From the NCBI GenBank assembly GCA_949292385.1, contig CASEZC010000010.1:7432-71431 (forward strand): a DNA stretch of 64,000 bases, written 5' to 3'. Under the pieces are notes generated by a model. It did no database searches, was not told the origin of the DNA, and worked only from the letters and a program-made list of their open reading frames with translations. Within the stretch, counting starts at the first letter, position 1. The number at the start of each line of letters is the position of its first letter. The stretch is from an uncultured Pseudomonadota bacterium (lineage in GTDB: Bacteria > Pseudomonadota > Alphaproteobacteria > Rs-D84). A program made the position numbers and the translations under genes. Shown piece by piece: positions 5,572 through 55,783 of this stretch.

Positions 5572-7197
5572 TCATTCAAATAGCAACGGCAGTATACTAT
5601 CAAGAATTTTTCCCGCAGTAGGAACGGCATTCCATGCAGCTGTTCTAAGACCAAAAGACTCTTTCGTTCCCTTTGGTTCATCTAAAATAACAAGTATTGT
5701 ATACTGTGGTGCGGCAACTGGGAAGATACCCGCAAACGCCGTTAAATTTTTTCTGTGGTCAACTCGTCCATTTACATATTTCTCTGCAGTTGCAGTTTTT
5801 CCACCGATTTGTATACCTGCGATTCGAGCCTTTTTACCGCTGGTTTCTTCAGCAATTCTTAACATAACACCACGCAAACGTTCTGAAATCTCATCTGACA
5901 GAACACGTTCACCGCGTACAACGCCGACGTTACGTTTTTGTATTGTAGGATATATATATATTCCGCCATTAGTCATAGAATTCACTGCCAATAACAGATG
6001 CATAGGAGTAACAGATATACCATGTCCGAAAGATACAGTAGCTCTCTCAACAGGTCCCCATTTAATCGGCATAAGTGGCTTTTCTGTTTTACCAAAATCT
6101 AATTTTAACGATTCGTCTAAATGTATTCTGTGAAAGAACTCTTGCTGCGTACCATCAGGTAAATCTAATGCAATCTGTGCACTTCCAGCATTACATGAAT
6201 GCAACATAATTTCTTCAACAGTAAGATTAGGACGCGGTGGTTTAAAGCTGCTAACGTCACCTATTCTTGCAGCAGTTCTTCCAAACTTGTCAGGTATTTT
6301 AAAAGCTTCAGCTATATAATATTCTTTATTTATACCATTTTCCATAGCCATGGCAGTATTAAATACTTTAAATATAGACCCCATTTCAAACACACCGCGT
6401 AACGGCTTAAACAAACGATTCGACGCAGGATCCAGGCTTAGATTTTCTGGATCAAAATCTGGCAAAGAAACCATAGCAATCATTTCACCGGTTCTTGAAT
6501 TCATCAATAAACCCATGGCAGATTTTGCTTGGTATTTCTGCATAGCAAAAGATAACTGCTCATAAAACACAGACTGTATTCTTGCATCTAACGACAACTG
6601 CAACGGATCTCTGTTTTCTGTAAGATAATCATCATAAATACGCTCTACCCCTTCCAAACCGTGTCCATCATTTCCAACGAACCCGACAATATGAGAAAAT
6701 AATCTACGCTTTGGATATCTTCTTGTCTGCACAGGTTCAATTTCTAACCCCTGCAGTTTTGCTTTTGTAACAATTTCACGTTGTGCATCACTTGCATACT
6801 TCTTTATGTATATAAACTTTCTAGAAGAATTAACCAATTTCAACGCGTCATTCAAAGAATATTGATAAGGCAACGCTTGATGTATTACAGCCGCGACTTT
6901 ATCTCTGTCCTTTACATAAGGAGGTCTTAAAGTTATATGCCCAGACATAACATTTTTAGCCAAGATATCACCATTTCTATCAATAATATCCGCACGTTGC
7001 GCAGTCCAAGCACCATCTGCACCTGCCAACCTAGACCTGTCTGTTCCTTGTATACCCAACCACAAGGTTCTAACTATAAAAATAAGGAAAGCAATAACGA
7101 ACAAAGAATAAACAAAGCGCAATCTACGACGTGCAGAAACATCTGCAACTACGCCATTAAAACCATGTTTAAAAATATCCTTTCCTACTTCAAACAT
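5572..7197 (-). CDS. ftsI: Peptidoglycan D,D-transpeptidase, class B PBP (FtsI-like)
   Basis: N-terminal TM, PBP dimerisation and transpeptidase domains (SIFK, KTAT motifs). Sits directly downstream of an ftsL-like gene. Confidence 0.8.
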   Translation of the reverse strand: MFEVGKDIFKHGFNGVVADVSARRRLRFVYSLFVIAFLIFIVRTLWLGIQGTDRSRLAGADGAWTAQRADIIDRNGDILAKNVMSGHITLRPPYVKDRDKVAAVIHQALPYQYSLNDALKLVNSSRKFIYIKKYASDAQREIVTKAKLQGLEIEPVQTRRYPKRRLFSHIVGFVGNDGHGLEGVERIYDDYLTENRDPLQLSLDARIQSVFYEQLSFAMQKYQAKSAMGLLMNSRTGEMIAMVSLPDFDPENLSLDPASNRLFKPLRGVFEMGSIFKVFNTAMAMENGINKEYYIAEAFKIPDKFGRTAARIGDVSSFKPPRPNLTVEEIMLHSCNAGSAQIALDLPDGTQQEFFHRIHLDESLKLDFGKTEKPLMPIKWGPVERATVSFGHGISVTPMHLLLAVNSMTNGGIYIYPTIQKRNVGVVRGERVLSDEISERLRGVMLRIAEETSGKKARIAGIQIGGKTATAEKYVNGRVDHRKNLTAFAGIFPVAAPQYTILVILDEPKGTKESFGLRTAAWNAVPTAGKILDSILPLLFE

Positions 7198-10451: not shown

Positions 10452-11273
10452 TTATTTTGCTACATAACAATCCAAACCATCTGACTTTGCGTTACGGCAA
10501 AAACCATTTGCTTCGTTTGAAGAATCAAACGCTATACGAAGTCTGTATGTAGTTGTTCCATTTGGTAAAACGGCTGCCAATATAACAAACTGCTTTCCAG
10601 CGAACAAATTCTTGTGTGCAGATTGAATTTGACTTTGAGCTTTTTCTGCGGCAGCTCTCGTGCTATAAGAACCAAACTGAACATACCAATTTGCCTTTTT
10701 AGCAATGTTCTGTGATTTTTTCACACTGGTCTTTTTTGTAACCTTCGCCTGTTGCGTAGTCGCACTTTTTGTTACTTTTTTAGGTGCTTCCGTTTTTACA
10801 ACTGGTTTTTCAGGATTAAAAGTAACGTCTTTTCTGTCTTCAACGACACGAACAGGCGTACCAAGCTTTTCCTGGACAGGTTCTTTCTTAACAACAGGAG
10901 CTTGCTTTTCAACAACTTTTACAGGTTGCTTTTCTACAACAGGAACTTTTACCGGCTGTGGTTTCTGTTGTGGCACCTCAACAACATTTACAGGCATACT
11001 TTCAGCACCAACGTTTACCGGTACCTCTGCCCCTTCACCATCAACAATTACAGCAGGCGCATCCAAATCTACTTCCATAGAAGAAGAAGAATCACCACCA
11101 ATTGCGCGAATAATGATGTAAGTTGCCAAAACTATGACCAACAATCCCAAACCCAACAAAAGCCATGGTTTCTTAGGACGAGGCGCCGCAAAAGGTGCAG
11201 CATCTGGTAAATTATCCATAGATTCTGTATCGTCGTTTAAATCTAATAAATCCAAATTATCATCATTATTCAT
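10452..11273 (-). CDS. SPOR-domain septal peptidoglycan-binding protein with Pro/Val/Lys-rich repeats
   Basis: N-terminal TM, repetitive PVKVPVVEKQPVKVVEK linker, C-terminal SPOR-like domain (WYVQFGSYSTRAAAEKAQSQI...YRLRI). Confidence 0.65.
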   Translation of the reverse strand: MNNDDNLDLLDLNDDTESMDNLPDAAPFAAPRPKKPWLLLGLGLLVIVLATYIIIRAIGGDSSSSMEVDLDAPAVIVDGEGAEVPVNVGAESMPVNVVEVPQQKPQPVKVPVVEKQPVKVVEKQAPVVKKEPVQEKLGTPVRVVEDRKDVTFNPEKPVVKTEAPKKVTKSATTQQAKVTKKTSVKKSQNIAKKANWYVQFGSYSTRAAAEKAQSQIQSAHKNLFAGKQFVILAAVLPNGTTTYRLRIAFDSSNEANGFCRNAKSDGLDCYVAK

Positions 11274-17745: not shown

Positions 17746-18672
17746 ATGAAAATAAGAATTGATAACATATTACTTGGAACCTTATGGTTACTAGCTGTAA
17801 CGCTGGGGGCAAGCTTTTGGTTTAACACAATATTTGGTTTTAATATATTATCCGTAAAACACTGGGAATACGTTTCTTATTTGCAGGCAGCAAAAACACC
17901 TATAAATTCTATGTTTTATGTATCTTTTGTAATAACGGTATTTGTTGCAATCCTAGGCTTATACGTTCTTATACGTCCAAGATTAAGAAAAATTAGACTA
18001 CCAATAGTACGAATATCAAACAATAAACCTGTTCAAACATCACAACCAGAAAAAAACACACAAACAGACGCATCTACACTGGATGTAACTAAAAGCGCTG
18101 AAATACAAAAAACAGTCCCAACCGCCCCAAGTGTTCCACAGCATATAACAGTCAGACCACCTAGGTTAAATTTACCGATAGCAAGCAATATGTCGACACC
18201 TGTAATCAACAAACAACCGACAAACAACACTTTTAACAACCAACCAAAACCAGTAGCCAAGGAATATCCAGAAATACAAGAAATATTTGCATCTGCTGGC
18301 TATACAGTAAAAAAGAACCCTATAATAAACGGCATAAAAACCGCATTACTGGCAATTGGTTCTGACGAAGTGCTCTGGATTGGGGCCGTTGGAATAAAAA
18401 CGACAGAATTAAGAGCAATGATAGATAAACTATCACAAGTATTTTCTGACACGTTGGATGATATATACATAAATATAAATGGTTTTGTTCTTTTTGCACC
18501 AGATGAAGCAACGGCAGAATTTCAAAACATATTAATGTTTAATTCTATAACGCAGTTAAAAGAATACATGGAAACGCGAAAGAATCCAACGCTGCCAGAA
18601 GAAGAGAAAGATAATTTTGATGCATATTCAGAATATATTGATACAGTAATAAACTATATAGGTAAAATTTGA
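17746..18672 (+). CDS. Membrane protein of unknown function: two N-terminal TM helices, Pro/Gln/Thr-rich linker, about 130-aa C-terminal globular domain
   Basis: 308 aa; TM1 LLGTLWLLAVTLGASFWF, TM2 FYVSFVITVFVAILGLYVLI. The C-terminal domain (GYTVKKNPIINGIKTALLAIGSDEVLWIGAVGIKT...) loosely resembles a NERD/YraN restriction-endonuclease-like core. First gene of a four-gene operon. Confidence 0.5.
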   Translation: MKIRIDNILLGTLWLLAVTLGASFWFNTIFGFNILSVKHWEYVSYLQAAKTPINSMFYVSFVITVFVAILGLYVLIRPRLRKIRLPIVRISNNKPVQTSQPEKNTQTDASTLDVTKSAEIQKTVPTAPSVPQHITVRPPRLNLPIASNMSTPVINKQPTNNTFNNQPKPVAKEYPEIQEIFASAGYTVKKNPIINGIKTALLAIGSDEVLWIGAVGIKTTELRAMIDKLSQVFSDTLDDIYININGFVLFAPDEATAEFQNILMFNSITQLKEYMETRKNPTLPEEEKDNFDAYSEYIDTVINYIGKI

Positions 18673-19178
18673 TGCAATTAACAAAAGAAGCAGCTGAGCA
18701 AAAATTATCTGAATTAAAAATGGACGATTTGCCATTAATAAACATAACGCCCCAAAAAGCCAGCTTGTCTTCTGATTGGTTTATAAAATATAAAAAAGCA
18801 TGTCATGAATTCGCCTTATCTTTAACAGATTCAATAGAAGAACTTGCTTTTATGAATTTGTCTCAAGACGACTTTATGAATTTAATTATGGGCAAAAAGA
18901 TACCTACAAACTTGTCAATAAGATTTAGAATACCTTTACTTTATGGTGGCGAAATAAGTCCAGATAATATGTTTATGTGTTGGACATTTCCTAATTCTTA
19001 CAGATTAGACAAATTTATTGCGGACCAAGCAGGCAGTCAAACAATATGGTTACCTAACCCTACAAAAAAGATATATATTTCTGCACACACAGCATCTGGC
19101 GGGGATGGTGGTAACGCAACGTCTGACAGACTGTCCCAGCTGGCCGCACAACTTTCACAAAATCGTGGCATGGAATAA
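18669..19178 (+). CDS. Hypothetical protein (169 aa), no signal peptide
   Basis: ATGA start/stop overlap with the upstream gene. No family recognised by eye; C-terminal Gly/Ser-rich segment (HTASGGDGGNATS). Confidence 0.45.
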   Translation: MMQLTKEAAEQKLSELKMDDLPLINITPQKASLSSDWFIKYKKACHEFALSLTDSIEELAFMNLSQDDFMNLIMGKKIPTNLSIRFRIPLLYGGEISPDNMFMCWTFPNSYRLDKFIADQAGSQTIWLPNPTKKIYISAHTASGGDGGNATSDRLSQLAAQLSQNRGME

Positions 19179-19189
19179 GAGAAACAAAA

Positions 19190-19618
19190 ATGACCCAAGA
19201 AGAATTCTTACTTGAAATGAAAAAAAACGGTGCAACTTTTGCCCCTGCTTCATCTGGTCAATCAATAAATTTAGCAAACACCAAATTGCAACAAAATCAA
19301 TCTGCAATGCTGCCTGAATTTATGATAAATTTATATCAAAAAACAGGCGGAATAAATCTTGGTAACGGTTATATATTTGGTCCAAGCGAATTTTCTGTAG
19401 ACGGTAAATTCCCTGTTCCAGATTTATTAAAAGTAAACAAAGATTTTAATAAAAACATGCGTGGAAAAACGATATTCGGTCGCAACGATTTATTCTTTTT
19501 TGCGTTTGATTGCTTTGGCACATGTTTTATGCTGAACAATCTGACATTAAACCCATTAAAAAAGTATGATGATTGTTACAGAGCATTAACAGATTGTTTA
19601 ATTGCAGGAAAAAACTAA
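19190..19618 (+). CDS. SUKH-1 / SMI1-KNR4-like protein (immunity-protein-type fold)
   Basis: INLANTKLQQNQSAMLPEFMINLYQKTGG matches the SMI1/KNR4 consensus (I.e.e.kLg..LPedykefl.kyNGG); distal aromatic/Asp motif (RNDLFFFAFDCFGTCFMLN). Confidence 0.5.
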   Translation: MTQEEFLLEMKKNGATFAPASSGQSINLANTKLQQNQSAMLPEFMINLYQKTGGINLGNGYIFGPSEFSVDGKFPVPDLLKVNKDFNKNMRGKTIFGRNDLFFFAFDCFGTCFMLNNLTLNPLKKYDDCYRALTDCLIAGKN

Positions 19619-19620
19619 AC

Positions 19621-19839
19621 ATGAAAAAACTATCAGTATCTTTATCTGGCCATCAAACAAGTATATCATTAGAAAAAGAATTCATAGATTGCCTGCATGA
19701 ACTTGCGAACGAAAAGAAATGTTCTGTTGCATCAATAATATCAGAAATAGATTCTGCACGTAACCCAGACACAAATTTATCATCTGCAATACGTATATGG
19801 ATTTTAAAAGAAATACAAAATAAAAAAACCGCTATATAG
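19621..19839 (+). CDS. Small ribbon-helix-helix DNA-binding protein (alphaproteobacterial RHH_4-like family)
   Basis: MKKLSVSLSGHQTSISLEKEFIDCLHELANEKKCSVASIISEIDSARNPDTNLSSAIRIWILKEI matches the conserved S.SLSGH.TSISLE..F...L...A...G.S...LI..ID..R...NLSSA.R pattern. AGGA Shine-Dalgarno upstream; last gene of the operon. Confidence 0.6.
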   Translation: MKKLSVSLSGHQTSISLEKEFIDCLHELANEKKCSVASIISEIDSARNPDTNLSSAIRIWILKEIQNKKTAI

Positions 19840-19845
19840 CGGTTT
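19828..19845. terminator. Bidirectional rho-independent terminator (palindrome AACCGCTATATAGCGGTT)
   Basis: Perfect 18-nt palindrome flanked by an A-run (19822-19827) and TTTT (19846-19849). Lies between the RHH gene (+) stop and the ybeY-lnt (-) stop. Confidence 0.8.
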
Positions 19846-19852
19846 TCTGGTA

Positions 19853-21873: not shown

Positions 21874-23784
21874 CTATATATCTTTAACGTTGTTCTTTAA
21901 CAAATTAACGATATCTTTTTCATTAGATTTTTTATTAACAATTTCCATTGCATCACTAAAAGACAAAGTTTTAGATTTCATTTTTTCTTTAAGTCTTTCT
22001 ACATCTTTTTTTACATTAAGATTTCCATTTGCAACAGACAATTCATAATTCTTTAAAGCCTTTTCCAAATCTCCGATTTGTTCGTATGCAAAACCAGCAT
22101 TATACTGAGCAGCCGCATACTGGCTTTTATCGCCAATTCTATGAAGAATTTCTTTAGCTTGATTTATAGCCTCTTGATACATACCAAGTTTATTATAAGT
22201 TGCAGCCAAGTCATTATATAATAACGCATTGTCTTTATGAACAGATATAAGTTCTTTATACTTGATTTCTGCCTTTTTATAATCTCCACTTTTATAACAA
22301 TTTAAAGCCTCTTCATATGCATCGGCATATTCTAGGGTGTAAGTACTTTTTTCTATTTTTTCTTGTTTTTTTGTTTGTCTGACTAAAGCTTTACCACTAA
22401 ACTCGCATTCCCCCATTTCACAATATGCCAAAACATCGGCTGGCAAATAATCTTTAACACATTTCCAATGTTTTATAGGACGACCATTCTTATCAATAGG
22501 ATTATTCAGCCACATTTTAAATTTTGCATAAGTATCCTTGTTAACTTTTCTATCACCGGATTTTCCAGTAAAGAAAGCTTCTTCTTTCTGTCCCATATAG
22601 CAAAAGAATTCATACATTCCATTTACCGGACAATTTAATAACATATCTGGTGTTATATCACCAGACAGCACTCCTGCCTCTAGCCAACGGCGCCAATATA
22701 GCCCCTTGCCACCGGCCAAGAAACCACCCAACTTATCCGACACGTCTGATTTTTTATCATACCCGAGCCACACCTTACCAAAACTAGTTGGCTTAACTAT
22801 CGGATATTTTTGAAACAACTTTATTACTAAATCATCAGGTACTGCATATCCATATTCTTTGTATATCCTTCTTAATTCAGTGAAACGATTCTTGACGTTT
22901 TTATCTTGTTTATTTTCTATCAATTTAGAATATGAATTATATATAATAGACCCCATTCCCAGGGCTTCTTTAGTATCATTCACATCTACATAATCACTTG
23001 CAACATCATAACAATATAAAACGAAATAAGTTTCACCCTCCTCTAAATGCCAACGTGCCAACTCATAGGCTTCTTCCGTAGTGATAGGTTTTGTTTTCAT
23101 AGTTACCCTTGAACCATCTTTTAGCATGGTAGAGCCAAAACCTATTGTAGGAATCCCCTTTGAATCAAGATAAGGTACATGCAGCCCAGTTTCAGGGTCC
23201 ACTTTAACGCCCTCTTTTGCAATTAAATCAGCAATAAGATAAGGTGTTATAGGACGCATTTTTTTCAAGAATTCCGCATATGTACCCTTTATTCGTTTAT
23301 TTTCTTCTCTGTCTTTTCGCCACTCTTTATAAGCATCTACTGCCAAAGGCCCTTTTTCAACGGCTGCCTTTCCTCCAAACCCTAAAACCCCTAACAGCAT
23401 ATACCACGATACATACGCAGATAAATTAGGATTACTTTTAGAAAAGCGTCTTAAAGTCTGAGATTGAAATTTTTTCTTTTCGTTTAAATTTATTTTCTTA
23501 TTTTTTTCTTCAAGCTTTCTTAAAAAGACATTATCCAAAGCCAACCATCTGGCCATAGTTAGTAAAAACTGCGCACCGCCAGCAGTCAACCAAGCTGCCC
23601 CTTTTGCAGTTTCCAAACCTACCAACATTGCTGAATCTTTATAAGCAGCATATTTTTCGTCATCGCCCTTTTTCTGTCGTCTTTTTTTTACAAAATCTCG
23701 CGGGCTTTGCTTTTCTATAAGTTTACGTAATTTTTCTGCAAGTTGTTCAGGTTTAGCAACAGCCTTTCTAAAAGAATCTTTCAT
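21874..23784 (-). CDS. Membrane-anchored GH24 (T4-lysozyme-like) muramidase with a C-terminal TPR-repeat region
   Basis: 636 aa. Charged N-terminal segment of about 110 aa, one TM (YVSWYMLLGVLGFGG), then PETGLHVPYLDSKGIPTIGFGST, which aligns residue-for-residue with the T4 lysozyme E11-x8-D20-x5-T26 catalytic region ([21 protein letters not shown]). Cys-containing middle region; at least 3 TPR repeats near the C-terminus (YNKLGMYQEAINQAKEIL, AQYNAGFAYEQIGDLEKALKNYELS). AAGGA Shine-Dalgarno 8 nt upstream. Confidence 0.6.
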   Translation of the reverse strand: MKDSFRKAVAKPEQLAEKLRKLIEKQSPRDFVKKRRQKKGDDEKYAAYKDSAMLVGLETAKGAAWLTAGGAQFLLTMARWLALDNVFLRKLEEKNKKINLNEKKKFQSQTLRRFSKSNPNLSAYVSWYMLLGVLGFGGKAAVEKGPLAVDAYKEWRKDREENKRIKGTYAEFLKKMRPITPYLIADLIAKEGVKVDPETGLHVPYLDSKGIPTIGFGSTMLKDGSRVTMKTKPITTEEAYELARWHLEEGETYFVLYCYDVASDYVDVNDTKEALGMGSIIYNSYSKLIENKQDKNVKNRFTELRRIYKEYGYAVPDDLVIKLFQKYPIVKPTSFGKVWLGYDKKSDVSDKLGGFLAGGKGLYWRRWLEAGVLSGDITPDMLLNCPVNGMYEFFCYMGQKEEAFFTGKSGDRKVNKDTYAKFKMWLNNPIDKNGRPIKHWKCVKDYLPADVLAYCEMGECEFSGKALVRQTKKQEKIEKSTYTLEYADAYEEALNCYKSGDYKKAEIKYKELISVHKDNALLYNDLAATYNKLGMYQEAINQAKEILHRIGDKSQYAAAQYNAGFAYEQIGDLEKALKNYELSVANGNLNVKKDVERLKEKMKSKTLSFSDAMEIVNKKSNEKDIVNLLKNNVKDI

Positions 23785-23793
23785 GTTCGTTCC

Positions 23794-24156
23794 TTACTTT
23801 TTCCCAAGACCTGTTTTCTTAGCTATTTTTGATCTGCGTTCAGAATATTTAGGTGCAACAAAGGGATAATCATCTGGCAGTCCCCATTTTTCTCGATATT
23901 GCTCTGGTGTCATATTAAACTTTCTTTTCAAATACCGGCGCAACATAATGTGCCAAGTACCATCTTCCAAGCATTGAATTTTATCTGGTTGTACAGAATT
24001 TGCGATTTTTTGTGGGCTGATTGTTGTGCCACGCAAGCTTTCCCTGGCCTCTTTAACTGCTGCCTGCATAGAAAGCTTGGGATTATTAGCCATAGCTGCT
24101 GCTGCCAAGTTTGCAACAGCCAATGCAAACTCTGAATTTTTATTTTCACTTACCAA
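23794..24156 (-). CDS. mucR: Ros/MucR-family transcriptional regulator with a non-canonical (Cys-poor) zinc-finger region
   Basis: C-terminal TPEQYREKWGLPDDYPFVAPKYSERRSKIAKKTGLG is the Ros/MucR signature. The finger reads IQCLEDGTWHIMLRRYLKRK instead of CLECG...KRHL..HH, so the second Cys and two His positions are substituted. Confidence 0.7.
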   Translation of the reverse strand: MVSENKNSEFALAVANLAAAAMANNPKLSMQAAVKEARESLRGTTISPQKIANSVQPDKIQCLEDGTWHIMLRRYLKRKFNMTPEQYREKWGLPDDYPFVAPKYSERRSKIAKKTGLGKK

Positions 24157-26567: not shown

Positions 26568-27281
26568 TTAGAACAAAATGTTTACTTTTGCACCAATTTG
26601 GAAATTATCACTTTCGAACTCATAGTCAAGATGACCGATATATTGAGTACGTCCGTATTGACGAATTACCTTTCCACCCAACCATTCTTGGTTATATTTT
26701 GGATTTGTGGCTTTACGTATCATAAAAGAAGTCCCCAGACGCCAATCTTGACTGACACGGAAATAAGCCTCTGGTTCAAAATCTATATAAGCCATTCCAC
26801 GAACGTCATCAAAAATCCAGCTAGATTTTATTGTTGCCGCCAACGTAAGCCCTGCCCACTGACGACCAAACCTATAACCAGCATAATAAGTAGAATCTGC
26901 AAAATAAGGTGTTCTTACATGAGAACTGCCACCAAACTTTAAACCGAACAAAACATCTGAAATGATTCTTGCACTGTTACCATCAGCTGTACTTACACGA
27001 TAAACACCGCCCAAATCTATACTAGAAAAACCATCTTCCGTACCATCAAAATCTTGCTGAAAATGAACGTTTGCAGCAATGGTTAATCTGTTATTTAATC
27101 CATAAGACACTGTCTGTCCAAGGCGCAAAATACTATCCCAATAAGTAAGAGATGTTTCTGATAAAAAATCTTCAAATCCTAACATATACAAAGGATCCGA
27201 AGTATCCCTATCTAAGACGTTAGCAAGCGCCCCATTGCAAAAAAAACAAGAAATTAAAAATACAGAAAAAAATTTGCGCAT
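26568..27281 (-). CDS. Outer-membrane beta-barrel protein, smaller paralog (signal peptide, C-terminal Phe)
   Basis: Start taken at MRKFFSVFLISCFFCNGALA (signal peptide); alternating amphipathic beta-strand pattern; ends ...GAKVNILF (aromatic C-terminus typical of BAM substrates). Confidence 0.6.
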   Translation of the reverse strand: MRKFFSVFLISCFFCNGALANVLDRDTSDPLYMLGFEDFLSETSLTYWDSILRLGQTVSYGLNNRLTIAANVHFQQDFDGTEDGFSSIDLGGVYRVSTADGNSARIISDVLFGLKFGGSSHVRTPYFADSTYYAGYRFGRQWAGLTLAATIKSSWIFDDVRGMAYIDFEPEAYFRVSQDWRLGTSFMIRKATNPKYNQEWLGGKVIRQYGRTQYIGHLDYEFESDNFQIGAKVNILF

Positions 27282-27317
27282 AATCCCTCTCCAACAAACC
27301 AAAGCACTAAAACATAT

Positions 27318-27343
27318 TAGAACTCTTGCCAACAAGAGTTCTA
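27318..27343. other. Perfect 11-bp-stem hairpin between the two tandem OMP genes
   Basis: TAGAACTCTTG-ccaa-CAAGAGTTCTA. No strong U-run on the OMP-sense strand, so it may be a partial terminator or attenuator between paralogs. Confidence 0.5.
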
Positions 27344-27357
27344 ATATTCGTATTCAA

Positions 27358-28554
27358 TTAAAACAAGAACGTTGCTTGCAATCCAACAGAAGTTTCAGAG
27401 TAATTATCTAAATCTGCTGTACCCATTTTAACAAAGTTTCCTGTATCAATATCCGTTCCCCAGAAAGTCAAATTCTTTCCGTCTGCAGAATCATAAACAG
27501 CTGTTTTTGCATACAAGTTCAAAGCAACCCAATCATTTGGCTGCCAACCAATTGCAGCTTTCAAACTCGCTTGGTTATGCCAATCATAGTTACCTATTAC
27601 GCCTTCGAAATTCAGCGTCCAATCTTCATCTAATACGCTGAATATACCAAGACCGCCTTCTACATAAAATACGCTGCTTACATCCGTATTATATGCCAAG
27701 AATATTGTTGACTTTGCACCATCTTCTGTAACGCCTTCTATACCATTACCATAAGAATTTCCATCAAAATCAACATACCAACCACGGGCTAATCCATATA
27801 TTGTAGAAGAACCTACTTTATAACCGCCCTTTAAATCCAACAAAATATTGTTAGAAATATCTTTCTGATACTGATAGTAACCAGACAAAGTAGCAATCCA
27901 CTTGTCGTTATCTACGAAGCGCCACTGAGCACCAACACCGAACAAGTTCAAACCGTTATCGTCCATAGTATCATCTGGTGCAGTTGACCAATCAAATTCA
28001 TAACTTGAAATATCATATTTCAACATTGCCAAAACTGCGATACGGTCTGTAATACCATAACTGAAGTCTTCTTTGATAGAAAACTGGTCCATATTCCATT
28101 TTCCGTTTACATCTGAAACAGTACCTGTCGGCAACAGTTTAATATCATAAGAATTCATTGTATAAGACAAATCTGTAACAGAGCCAAACTTACCTTTCAA
28201 AGGTTGGAAGAAAGGATGCGCCAAGAAATACTTACGCTTTAATTCACTGCTGTATGTTTCAGCGCGTGTTGTACGAACAGTTGTAGAATTATTACCCGCA
28301 TATTGCTTATACAACTGACTGCGGTTAGCAGGCTGAGTGTAATACAAATTTTTTGCATCTTTTTCATCATATGTTTTCGTAGAAGTACGAGTTTCATATT
28401 TCTGATAATTAACCTGCGTACGTTCACGAACAGCAGGCTGTCCAGTTAAGTCAACGCTTGATGCGGCACGAGTGCCAGAATTTGTTGCAGCAAACGCAGG
28501 CAACACACCGAACAAAGCAAGTCCACACATAAACAAAGAAACTTTATTTTTCAT
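27358..28554 (-). CDS. Outer-membrane beta-barrel protein, larger paralog
   Basis: Start taken at MKNKVSLFMCGLALFGVLPAFA (signal peptide); ends ...VGLQATFLF; beta-strand periodicity throughout. Confidence 0.6.
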   Translation of the reverse strand: MKNKVSLFMCGLALFGVLPAFAATNSGTRAASSVDLTGQPAVRERTQVNYQKYETRTSTKTYDEKDAKNLYYTQPANRSQLYKQYAGNNSTTVRTTRAETYSSELKRKYFLAHPFFQPLKGKFGSVTDLSYTMNSYDIKLLPTGTVSDVNGKWNMDQFSIKEDFSYGITDRIAVLAMLKYDISSYEFDWSTAPDDTMDDNGLNLFGVGAQWRFVDNDKWIATLSGYYQYQKDISNNILLDLKGGYKVGSSTIYGLARGWYVDFDGNSYGNGIEGVTEDGAKSTIFLAYNTDVSSVFYVEGGLGIFSVLDEDWTLNFEGVIGNYDWHNQASLKAAIGWQPNDWVALNLYAKTAVYDSADGKNLTFWGTDIDTGNFVKMGTADLDNYSETSVGLQATFLF

Positions 28555-28657
28555 ATTAAATTCTCCTTTGACGAGAATTATACCACAAAAAGCACCCATA
28601 AAAAAGGAATTAATAAAAAAATCCCTATAAAACCAATATATAGGGATTTTTACTTAT

Positions 28658-54679: not shown

Positions 54680-55783
54680 ATGTCACACTGGTTTAAACAG
54701 TATATAAGTCATGTAATTATTGGCCTCTGTTGTGCTTTTACGCTTACATCTTGCGATTTATCAACTCCGACGCACAGCGGTGACAATTCAGTTATACCAT
54801 CTAATTTAAGAAAAGTTTCTTACAGTGAACTTCCTGGCTGGGATAATGACGATGTAAGATACGCTTTGCAAGCGTTTCGTAATTCTTGTAAGGCGAAAAT
54901 ACAATACACGGGTCGCGTAATACCAGACAAGGCTTTATTTGAAGAAAAATGCAGAATGTTACCAAGTGCCAGTGCTAACGTTGCAACAGTCCGTGCATGG
55001 TTTGAATCCAACTTTCAACCATACCAAGTATATAATGATGATGGCGGAAAACGCGGTACATACACAGGATACTATTCTCCTATAATTCCTGCTTGCAGAA
55101 CAAAAACCGCACAATGCAACGAACCATTAATGGGTGTACCAACAGACGGCAGAAAATATAAAGGCGTAGATAAAAAGACAATTGTAGAGAACAGAATTGG
55201 TCGCGTTTTATATTGGGCAAACATTGTTGATGTACAAAACATACAAATACAAGGCAGCGGTATGTTAGAACTGGAAGACGGTACTAATGTAAAATTAAAT
55301 TTTGCTGCTGTAAATGATATGCCATTTAAATCTATAGGGGAACAATTACGTAATCGTGGAATAAGGCCAGATGGCGGATATTCTGCTGACGCAGTATGGA
55401 AATACCTGAAGAAGAATCCATCTCTTGCAAAAGAAGTTATATACAGCAATCCGCGCTATGTATATTTCTATGAATCAGTTCCACCAGATGTAATCGGGAA
55501 GCTTGGCACACCACTATCAAAGATACGTTCAATTGCAATGGACGATGATATATATACACTTGGAATGCCGGTATATATAGATACAAACCTGTCCGACGGA
55601 CGCAGATTCAGTCGTCTTATGATTGCACAAGACACAGGCAGTGCTATACGTGGCTGGATACGTGCAGACATATTCTTTGGCAAAGGTGACGAAGCATATA
55701 AATTTGCACACGGTCAACATGCTCAAGGTCAGATGTTCATTTTGATGCCGAAAGAATATAGTTATGTCAAACCAACAAGATAA
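54680..55783 (+). CDS. mltA: Membrane-bound lytic murein transglycosylase A
   Basis: Lipoprotein signal (LTSCD), MltA and 3D domains (GSAIRGWIRADIFFGKG). Confidence 0.8.
   Translation: MSHWFKQYISHVIIGLCCAFTLTSCDLSTPTHSGDNSVIPSNLRKVSYSELPGWDNDDVRYALQAFRNSCKAKIQYTGRVIPDKALFEEKCRMLPSASANVATVRAWFESNFQPYQVYNDDGGKRGTYTGYYSPIIPACRTKTAQCNEPLMGVPTDGRKYKGVDKKTIVENRIGRVLYWANIVDVQNIQIQGSGMLELEDGTNVKLNFAAVNDMPFKSIGEQLRNRGIRPDGGYSADAVWKYLKKNPSLAKEVIYSNPRYVYFYESVPPDVIGKLGTPLSKIRSIAMDDDIYTLGMPVYIDTNLSDGRRFSRLMIAQDTGSAIRGWIRADIFFGKGDEAYKFAHGQHAQGQMFILMPKEYSYVKPTR

Follow-up and report, generated by a model that had tools for sequence, protein, structure and literature searches.

A candidate domesticated phage-type muramidase, predicted to be tethered to the inner membrane and fused to TPR repeats, in Rs-D84 alphaproteobacteria

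We analysed a stretch of 64,000 nucleotides (the window) of contig CASEZC010000010.1 (positions 7,432 to 71,431) from an uncultured alphaproteobacterium of the lineage Rs-D84 (GenBank assembly GCA_949292385.1), and focus here on one of its genes, called X below: an open reading frame (ORF) of 636 amino acids (aa) with its stop codon at 21874-21876. X combines a basic N-terminal module, a putative membrane helix, a lysozyme domain of glycoside hydrolase family 24 (GH24), an extension specific to its family and three TPR repeats. In our reading X encodes a domesticated periplasmic muramidase, tethered to the inner membrane and acting on the cell's own sacculus, and we give this explanation a probability of about 0.55: membrane anchoring, an intact catalytic triad and a TPR tail together make it most likely that an old phage lysin has been turned on the cell's own wall. 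A protein identical to X is already on record (P0001), and full-length homologs are 47–72% identical. We found no named family for X (Pfam and NCBIfam give only TPR plus a marginal PF00959 match), and a literature search found no description of a GH24-TPR membrane protein. The catalytic domain itself is ordinary; what is new is the architecture and the independent domestication.

X belongs to GH24 by its fold, by profile comparison and by its catalytic residues. The match to the Pfam family PF00959 is partial and hence marginal (22.8 bits, the gathering score being 22.3, with residues 203–252 aligned to positions 9–53 of a profile of 125), and single-sequence comparison retrieves P22 lysozyme at E=0.029. 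The endolysin family phrog_7 of PHROGs matches X at 1.5e-7, precomputed PF00959 matches are present in many X homologs, and hhalign comparison of the X family profile with a profile of small GH24 lysozymes (to which the P22 and T4 lysozyme sequences were added by hand) gives a probability of 99.65%. The complete two-lobe fold of T4/P22 lysozymes is found in X: the AlphaFold2 (AF2) model of residues 160–480 alone contains both lobes, with a predicted local distance difference test (pLDDT) of 90.3 and a predicted template-modelling score (pTM) of 0.89. The lysozyme fold that was proposed in an earlier reading of this DNA, made from the sequence without database searches (the sequence-only reading), is thus borne out. 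Foldseek, run with the whole chain on the PDB, found TPR proteins only and nothing on the enzyme part, and in a structure search of BFVD the match was confined to the GH24 core, with TM-scores of ∼0.3. No part of X is better conserved than the GH24 core, where homologs are 72–75% identical to the query; the values are 57% in the TPR region, 52% in the extension, ∼38% in the N-terminus and 20% in the tail.

The sequence-only reading had also described the catalytic Glu/Asp/Thr triad as intact, and this is borne out, with E191, D207 and T213 as the putative catalytic residues under strong constraint. Among 156 X-family sequences, to which all conservation counts below refer, E191 is Glu and T213 is Thr in every one, and D207 is Asp in 151 (the exceptions are Cys in two sequences, Ser, Ile and Asn). 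Y282-N283 and R365-R366-x2-E369, which are signature blocks of GH24, are essentially invariant as well. E191 is part of K190-E191-G192, which closes the helix of residues 169–191 in the AF2 models; in the lysozyme superfamily the catalytic Glu sits at the C-terminal end of that helix. As for the two sequences with Cys in place of D207, D20C and D20A variants of T4 and P22 lysozymes are reported to keep activity (10.1101/418723).

The residues involved are not quite those named before: the sequence-only reading had aligned E198, D207 and T213 with E11, D20 and T26 of T4 lysozyme (T4L). D207 and T213 were placed correctly, but E198, despite matching the T4L spacings (9 and 6 residues), is part of a spacer hairpin of variable sequence (residues 193–200) and falls in an insert column that is absent in 124 out of 156 sequences and holds Lys, Glu, Ala, Thr or Asn in the remainder; the match in spacing is therefore coincidental, and E198 as the catalytic Glu is ruled out. 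A second candidate explanation, that the catalytic Glu has been lost, was suggested by HMMER alignments with PDB lysozymes, which begin past the Glu or set the canonical EG against T199-G200. It was overturned by three observations. First, lysozymes of 150–180 aa with the same long spacer were recovered when a profile of the central domain was compared with 1.84 billion representative proteins (P0176, P0240, P0248, P0222 and P0188); their spacer follows the motif EG-(7–9 aa)-G[LM]HxPY, and the stretches in question are LEGNKKNSQGLHIPYL (P0240), SEGRVLNGQGMHKPYLD (P0248) and HEGIVLDDNGMAIPYL (P0176), where X has KEGVKVDPETGLHVPYLD. Second, the divergent family members P0150, P0155 and P0161 have no spacer and show the exact T4L spacing from the Glu at the helix end (e.g. 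PEGFESSAYQDGRGIWTIGYGST in P0150). Third, in the hhalign alignment E191 stands opposite the Glu that is catalytic in P22 lysozyme, with an insertion of 6–7 residues in between. The corrected active site (E191, not E198) matters for any mutagenesis.

With P22/T4-type endolysins (7m5i, 9kbs, 2anv and RrrD of Escherichia coli DLP12, 4zpu) X shares the Glu that ends helix alpha-1 and the Y-x-D...T-I-G-x-G hairpin after it, the YN block and the C-terminal G-x3-RR-x2-E block, and with a subclass of small lysozymes it shares the long spacer between EG and hairpin. Their identity to X is 22–34%. The phage enzymes, however, are soluble proteins of ∼150–170 aa encoded in lysis cassettes, whereas X has 636 aa, a putative membrane anchor, an insertion in the C-lobe, the extension and three TPRs, and is a vertically inherited core gene of the chromosome.

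Two hydrophobic helices precede the GH24 domain. The helix of residues 121–142 is transmembrane-like, albeit weakly hydrophobic and Gly-rich (mean hydrophobicity 0.57, hydrophobic moment 0.08), and would be the anchor, with the N-terminus in and the C-terminus out; the AF2 model has one continuous helix over residues 121–164, at low-to-moderate confidence. The sequence-only reading had postulated a single transmembrane segment, which fits this helix, but it overlooked a second weakly hydrophobic helix at residues 61–83 (Kyte–Doolittle (KD) peaks of the two are ∼1.0–1.2). The latter lies within the helix of residues 46–83 of the AF2 model, is moderately amphipathic (hydrophobic moment 0.28–0.30) and, with 59% family identity, is better conserved than the rest of the N-terminus; it is possibly an in-plane helix or a second transmembrane segment.

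The topology can be judged from the relatives, which come in two N-terminal designs: a long one as in X, and a short basic N-terminus followed by one strongly hydrophobic helix (KD 1.6–2.1) directly before the same GH24-extension(-TPR) module (members of the short design include P0123, P0129, P0137, P0140, P0141, P0146, P0150 and P0164). One of the latter, the ortholog P0137 (KD 2.14, one transmembrane helix), occupies the same ftsK...rarA / X-ybeY::lnt locus, and because it has a classical signal anchor the enzyme module should, by homology, be periplasmic in X too. On this model helix 121–142 would be inserted in the inner membrane, the basic N-terminal module including the loop of residues 84–120 would be cytoplasmic, and the protein would be periplasmic from about residue 143, with ∼45 residues between the transmembrane helix and the catalytic Glu. 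The general architecture given in the sequence-only reading, a lysozyme that is membrane-anchored and fused to TPRs, is supported.

Downstream of the GH24 domain, the extension forms one confident unit with it. Neither the extension (compared as residues 376–480) nor the N-terminal module (residues 1–159) has a match in Pfam, PHROGs or NCBIfam; the extension is confined to the X family in the scan of 1.84 billion proteins, and a BFVD search found no viral structural counterpart of it. The middle region contains cysteines, as had been noted from the sequence: C385, C455 and C460. The latter two co-vary (both are found in 133 sequences, neither in 15 and one alone in 8), which fits a small disulfide loop, and a C455-C460 disulfide probably stabilises the extension. 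A linker of low model confidence (residues 471–484) separates the enzyme from the C-terminal TPRs, whose early recognition is confirmed by profile, PDB and Foldseek matches at residues ∼485–603: tandem 34-residue helix-turn-helix repeats are found there, TPR_12 matches at 5.8e-8 (33.3 bits against a cutoff of 30.1; several other TPR models stay below their cutoffs), CTPR3 proteins of the PDB match with E values from 2e-10 to 1e-4, and Foldseek gives a TM-score of ∼0.8 to 1na0. There is also a similarity to the NCBIfam model of YbgF (E 7.6e-4), which is far below the YbgF cutoff.

The mechanism that we propose starts with an ancestor of Rs-D84 / Candidatus Enterousia that captured a phage-type GH24 muramidase, which then became a core envelope gene. 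The GH24 domain would hydrolyse the MurNAc-beta-1,4-GlcNAc linkages in the peptidoglycan of the cell itself, with E191 as the general acid and with D207 and T213 positioning the attacking water, like E11, D20 and T26 in T4L. The short tether would confine cleavage to the vicinity of the inner membrane, and the extension together with the flexibly linked three-TPR module may restrict or direct the activity through a partner protein of wall synthesis or division; a partner from one of these machineries is the most likely ligand of the TPRs. NlpI, the N-domain of LpoA, CpoB/YbgF and LbcA are TPR adaptors of wall synthases, hydrolases and proteases; they are lipoproteins or soluble proteins, encoded separately, and act in trans. 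The TPR of X is generic and is fused in cis to a hydrolase, and the parallel with these adaptors would be a functional analogy. MltG/YceG, a bitopic lytic transglycosylase of the inner membrane, places a lysozyme-like domain near the membrane at emerging glycan strands; it may serve as a working analogy only, as X has no YceG signature of Pfam, MltG belongs to a different catalytic family and GH24 enzymes of the T4/P22 type are hydrolases.

X is vertically inherited. We scanned one genome per species and found X in 79 species genomes. Their labels are Candidatus Enterousia, uncultured Alphaproteobacteria or 'Rickettsiales', and their sources are the guts of humans, chickens, horses and ruminants; a closed chromosome of 958,618 bp is among them. 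The gene is followed by ybeY-lnt in 68 out of 79 species genomes and has a divergent rarA upstream in 69; the linkage to mucR, which the sequence-only reading had proposed to check in relatives, is kept in 63, and all three neighbours are present in 61. Across these genomes, the identity values of X to the query rise and fall with those of rarA (Spearman 0.76) and lnt (0.73), which argues for vertical descent and not mobility. The best phage match has 34% identity over 63% of the core, and since the nearest phage proteins are this distant (∼34% over ∼60% of the core) the capture must be old. The ORF of X is intact and conserved at full length in all relatives.

As the sequence-only reading had it, X is flanked on the same strand by mucR and a fused ybeY-lnt ORF, with gaps of 9 and 11 nucleotides (nt), and there are Shine-Dalgarno motifs at both junctions: AAGGA before the start of X overlaps the stop codon of mucR, and the start of ybeY-lnt is preceded by AGGA. 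An intrinsic-terminator-like hairpin closes the unit; the remaining candidates from the terminator scan are short stems at chance frequency, none of them at a gene junction. We propose that X is co-transcribed with mucR and ybeY-lnt. Seven out of eight mucR-less loci that have rarA contain an X without its first 110 residues at least, and at L087 (protein P0137) X starts with a single strong transmembrane helix; the joint absence in 7/8 loci suggests that mucR and the N-terminal module were gained or lost as one block. The mucR-less loci are L053, L058, L066, L073, L081, L082, L085 and L087, as compared with the rest of L007-L085.

The surroundings of X are those of a housekeeping region. No phage structural or lysis genes (holin and spanin included) were found in the window or its flanks, where the sole 'phage' Pfam match is an XerC/D-type recombinase, which agrees with the earlier view that X is no endolysin of a prophage. 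Neither a secretion system nor a candidate immunity or inhibitor gene was found in the window or its flanks; they contain secDF, yajC, mutL, greA, lptF/G, the recombinase, tRNA synthetases, recA, secB, glycosyltransferases, an S41 protease and ftsK. The contig also encodes four further proteins of the cell wall (an MltA+3D lytic transglycosylase, a SPOR-domain protein, a class B penicillin-binding protein (PBP) and a DipM-like LysM-LysM-M23 protein; Table 1), so that wall remodelling is not minimal in this lineage despite genomes of less than 1 Mb. A reduced genome in which X alone cleaves glycans was a further candidate idea, but the MltA+3D protein rules it out; X therefore adds to the cell's means of wall remodelling and is not the sole glycan cleaver. 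Rs-D84 genomes are smaller than 1 Mb and have no amino-acid, nucleotide or lipid biosynthesis, RodA, MreB and MrdA are present, and a partner-dependent lifestyle has been proposed (PMC12306168). These three proteins, together with the wall proteins of the contig, show a lineage that makes peptidoglycan.

The closest precedent is SpmX (PDB 6h9d), which likewise joins a phage GH24 lysin to membrane segments and is a vertically inherited core gene throughout an alphaproteobacterial order (10.1101/418723). The two proteins differ in architecture (SpmX has an N-terminal GH24 domain, a Pro-rich region and two C-terminal transmembrane segments, whereas X has the N-terminal module, the transmembrane helix, GH24, extension and TPR in this order) and in their catalytic residues: SpmX has D20L/R and an unconstrained T26 (10.1101/418723), while X keeps both the Asp and the Thr. 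SpmX (6h9d) is 15% identical to X, less than the phage endolysins with 22–25%, and X is found in Rs-D84 and not in Caulobacterales; the capture was therefore independent of that of SpmX. Documented cases of a toxic phage lysin that became a bacterial housekeeping gene are rare, and the authors of the SpmX study called theirs the first (10.1101/418723). The X family would add an independent example from a different alphaproteobacterial order, in which the triad is kept and control is apparently achieved by tethering and added domains. It would also be an experimentally tractable, lineage-specific envelope enzyme of widespread but uncultured gut bacteria with minimal genomes, and so a candidate handle on their growth, division and partner contact. 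A bolder version, in which X is the second independent domestication of a lysin into an essential, order-wide gene after SpmX, fully catalytic, tamed by its tether and by gating through extension and TPR, and perhaps opening the wall at cell–cell contacts, seems doubtful to us.

Several points weigh against a domesticated muramidase. Pfam recognises the N-lobe alone, barely over threshold, and the enzymatic activity of X is a prediction, as are a catalytic E191-D207 geometry, the C455-C460 disulfide and a cleft left open by the extension. SpmX shows that a conserved catalytic Glu need not mean a lytic role (10.1101/418723). The anchor is weakly hydrophobic, and in some relatives helix 61–83 is as hydrophobic as the anchor. 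X is, moreover, the fastest-evolving gene of its block, with a median identity of 48% compared with 58–85% for its neighbours.

The strongest rival, which we still regard as rather unlikely, is a peptidoglycan-anchored scaffold or landmark with an attenuated lysozyme domain, in which the TPR and the N-terminal module recruit partners on both sides of the membrane. X would then resemble SpmX, whose GH24 domain serves localisation, and PodJ, a bitopic protein with periplasmic TPRs and a wall-binding domain. X has two modules of the interaction type (the TPR, and the conserved basic N-terminal module with its hydrophobic helix), its proposed co-transcription with mucR, whose product is described as a cell-cycle regulator in other alphaproteobacteria, would suit such a role, and the cleft could be narrowed or blocked by the extension and the large insertion; SpmX, moreover, is an attenuated phage GH24 lysin that has become a core alphaproteobacterial gene (10.1101/418723). 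But where SpmX has lost D20 and the constraint on T26, X has retained both residues (D207 is present in 97% and T213 in 100% of the family sequences) together with the signature blocks, the GH24 core is its most constrained region, and X is nearer to phage endolysins than to SpmX. Orthologs without the N-terminal module are found at the same locus, so a two-sided scaffold cannot be the ancestral or general function.

The sequence-only reading had offered three roles for X, namely peptidoglycan remodelling for a division machine, the same for a secretion machine, and a host-directed or antibacterial effector. Wall remodelling remains the preferred role, whereas no link to a secretion machine was found and an effector is not supported by any immunity or secretion context: the neighbours of X are mucR, ybeY-lnt, rarA and ftsK, and the window has no secretion genes. 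A related possibility is that the muramidase is released (by proteolysis or by an exit like that of signal-anchor-release (SAR) endolysins) or exposed at a contact site and breaches the wall of a partner bacterium, as a weapon or feeding tool. Rs-D84 bacteria have been proposed to live as obligate symbionts or parasites of other cells; with genomes of <1 Mb, Rs-D84/Enterousia probably obtain metabolites from other cells (PMC12306168). Bacteriocins and proteins associated with secretion are known to have reused lysozyme domains of phages (10.1101/418723); the weakly hydrophobic, Gly-rich anchor and the fast evolution of X would fit as well. We consider this improbable, however, given the housekeeping operon with its conserved synteny and vertical inheritance and the lack of an adjacent immunity, inhibitor or secretion-system gene. 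A protein with an inner-membrane anchor and a cytoplasmic module of 120 residues cannot cross the outer membrane without a release step, and the anchors of orthologs with short N-termini are strongly hydrophobic and not SAR-like. In SAR endolysins (P1 Lyz, PDB 1xju; R of phage 21) the helix at the extreme N-terminus abuts the catalytic Glu, and pinholin and spanin genes are adjacent. In X, by contrast, 120 residues precede the helix, ∼45 residues separate it from E191 (unlike in SAR endolysins such as P0183), there are no lysis genes nearby and the anchors of orthologs are strong.

Less probable still is a cytoplasmic enzyme module, in which helices 61–83 and 121–142 would form a hairpin of two transmembrane segments (N-in, C-in) and the module, kept away from peptidoglycan, would serve only protein contacts or act on a cytoplasmic substrate. 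The two helices are of similar strength, the first one being the stronger in P0136 (KD 1.78 compared with 1.28) and P0154 (1.62 compared with 1.08), and the segment past the second helix is as rich in Lys and Arg as the preceding loop. Yet the orthologs at the same locus with a single classical signal anchor put the module outside, the loop of residues 84–120 with its 11 Lys/Arg is disfavoured outside the cell membrane, helix 61–83 has an appreciable hydrophobic moment that helix 121–142 does not share, and the catalytic triad and the wall-binding signature blocks are conserved and the Cys pair co-varies. A remnant of a prophage or SAR-type endolysin from a decaying lysis cassette, to which the fold and the nearest sequence relatives (phage endolysins) could point, is effectively refuted by context and architecture: there is no phage gene in the window or flanks, X sits at the same locus in as many as 69/79 genomes, with a divergence that tracks the neighbouring core genes, the best phage match is distant, and the ORF is intact and conserved over its full length.

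Table 1. Features of gene X and its surroundings, in positions of the window unless stated otherwise
Feature	Residues of X	Position	Strand	Remarks
X, ORF of 636 aa	1-636	21874..23784	-	
N-terminal basic module	1-120	23425..23784	-	28 Lys/Arg outside the hydrophobic helix; long-N-terminus class only; predicted to be cytoplasmic
First hydrophobic helix	61-83	23536..23604	-	KGAAWLTAGGAQFLLTMARWLAL; KD peak ~1.0
Putative membrane anchor	121-142	23359..23424	-	LSAYVSWYMLLGVLGFGGKAAV; KD peak 1.18
Charged helical stalk/linker	143-168	23281..23358	-	33% family identity
GH24 (P22/T4-type) lysozyme domain	169-375	22660..23280	-	
E191 codon	191	23212..23214	-	putative catalytic general acid (K-E-G ending helix alpha-1)
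E198 codon	198	23191..23193	-	in variable spacer hairpin
D207 codon	207	23164..23166	-	equivalent of T4L D20
T213 codon	213	23146..23148	-	equivalent of T4L T26
Family-specific helical C-lobe insertion in GH24, ~60 residues	~295-355	22720-22902	-	
Family-specific extension, ~95 residues	376-470	22375..22659	-	one confident unit with GH24; pLDDT ~90, pTM 0.89
C455 and C460 codons	455, 460	22420-22422 and 22405-22407	-	C-x4-C pair in extension
Three TPR repeats and capping helix	485-603	21976..22332	-	six paired helices and cap, 486-603
Poorly conserved tail	604-636	21877..21975	-	pLDDT <60, 20% family identity
mucR (Ros/MucR family regulator)		23794..24156	-	PF05443 E=2.4e-28; opens the unit; 9-nt gap to X
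Fused ybeY-lnt ORF, 669 aa		19853..21862	-	domains YbeY, LNT_N and CN_hydrolase; follows X after an 11-nt gap
Intrinsic-terminator-like hairpin		19823..19848	-	11-bp stem, then T-run; closes the mucR-X-ybeY::lnt unit
MltA+3D lytic transglycosylase		54680..55783	+	
SPOR-domain protein		10452..11273	-	
Class B PBP		5572..7197	-	
LysM-LysM-M23 (DipM-like) protein		16129..17502 of L089		just outside the window, same contig

The neighbouring genes have features of their own. The MucR homolog in the window reads C-L-E-D-G...R-R-Y-L-K-R-K-F, where the Agrobacterium Ros counterpart is C-L-E-C-G...K-R-H-L-T-T-H-H; most of the zinc-binding residues are seemingly lost, and the protein may be a zinc-free variant of the Ros/MucR family. 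The YbeY-Lnt fusion has YbeY at residues 14–134, LNT_N at 182–345 and CN_hydrolase at 460–620, and it is preserved in every relative examined (644–673 aa); we know of no described YbeY-Lnt fusion protein.

Convergent to the mucR-X-ybeY::lnt unit is a conserved block of four genes (17746..19839, plus strand), present in all relatives examined, which encode proteins of 308 aa (with N-terminal transmembrane segments and a P/T/Q-rich linker), 169 aa, 142 aa (weakly similar to SUKH/SMI1, E=0.038) and 88 aa (RHH_4). Two further conserved ORFs on the minus strand, of 255 aa (26568..27335) and 413 aa (27358..28599), have no Pfam match and are always positioned between ftsK and rarA; with N-termini like signal peptides and a terminal Phe, they are possibly lineage-specific outer-membrane barrels.

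Five contigs with the rarA-mucR-X-ybeY::lnt arrangement (L035, L044, L082, L084 and L085) are filed in assemblies of Bacteroides fragilis, Muribaculaceae or Bacteroidia. The presence of this alphaproteobacterial block in assemblies so labelled is probably due to contamination in the binning of public metagenome-assembled genomes. Across the window, GC skew is negative in nearly all 2-kb bins (cumulative -5.45) and the genes are mostly on the minus strand, which is consistent with one replichore and a strong gene-strand bias.

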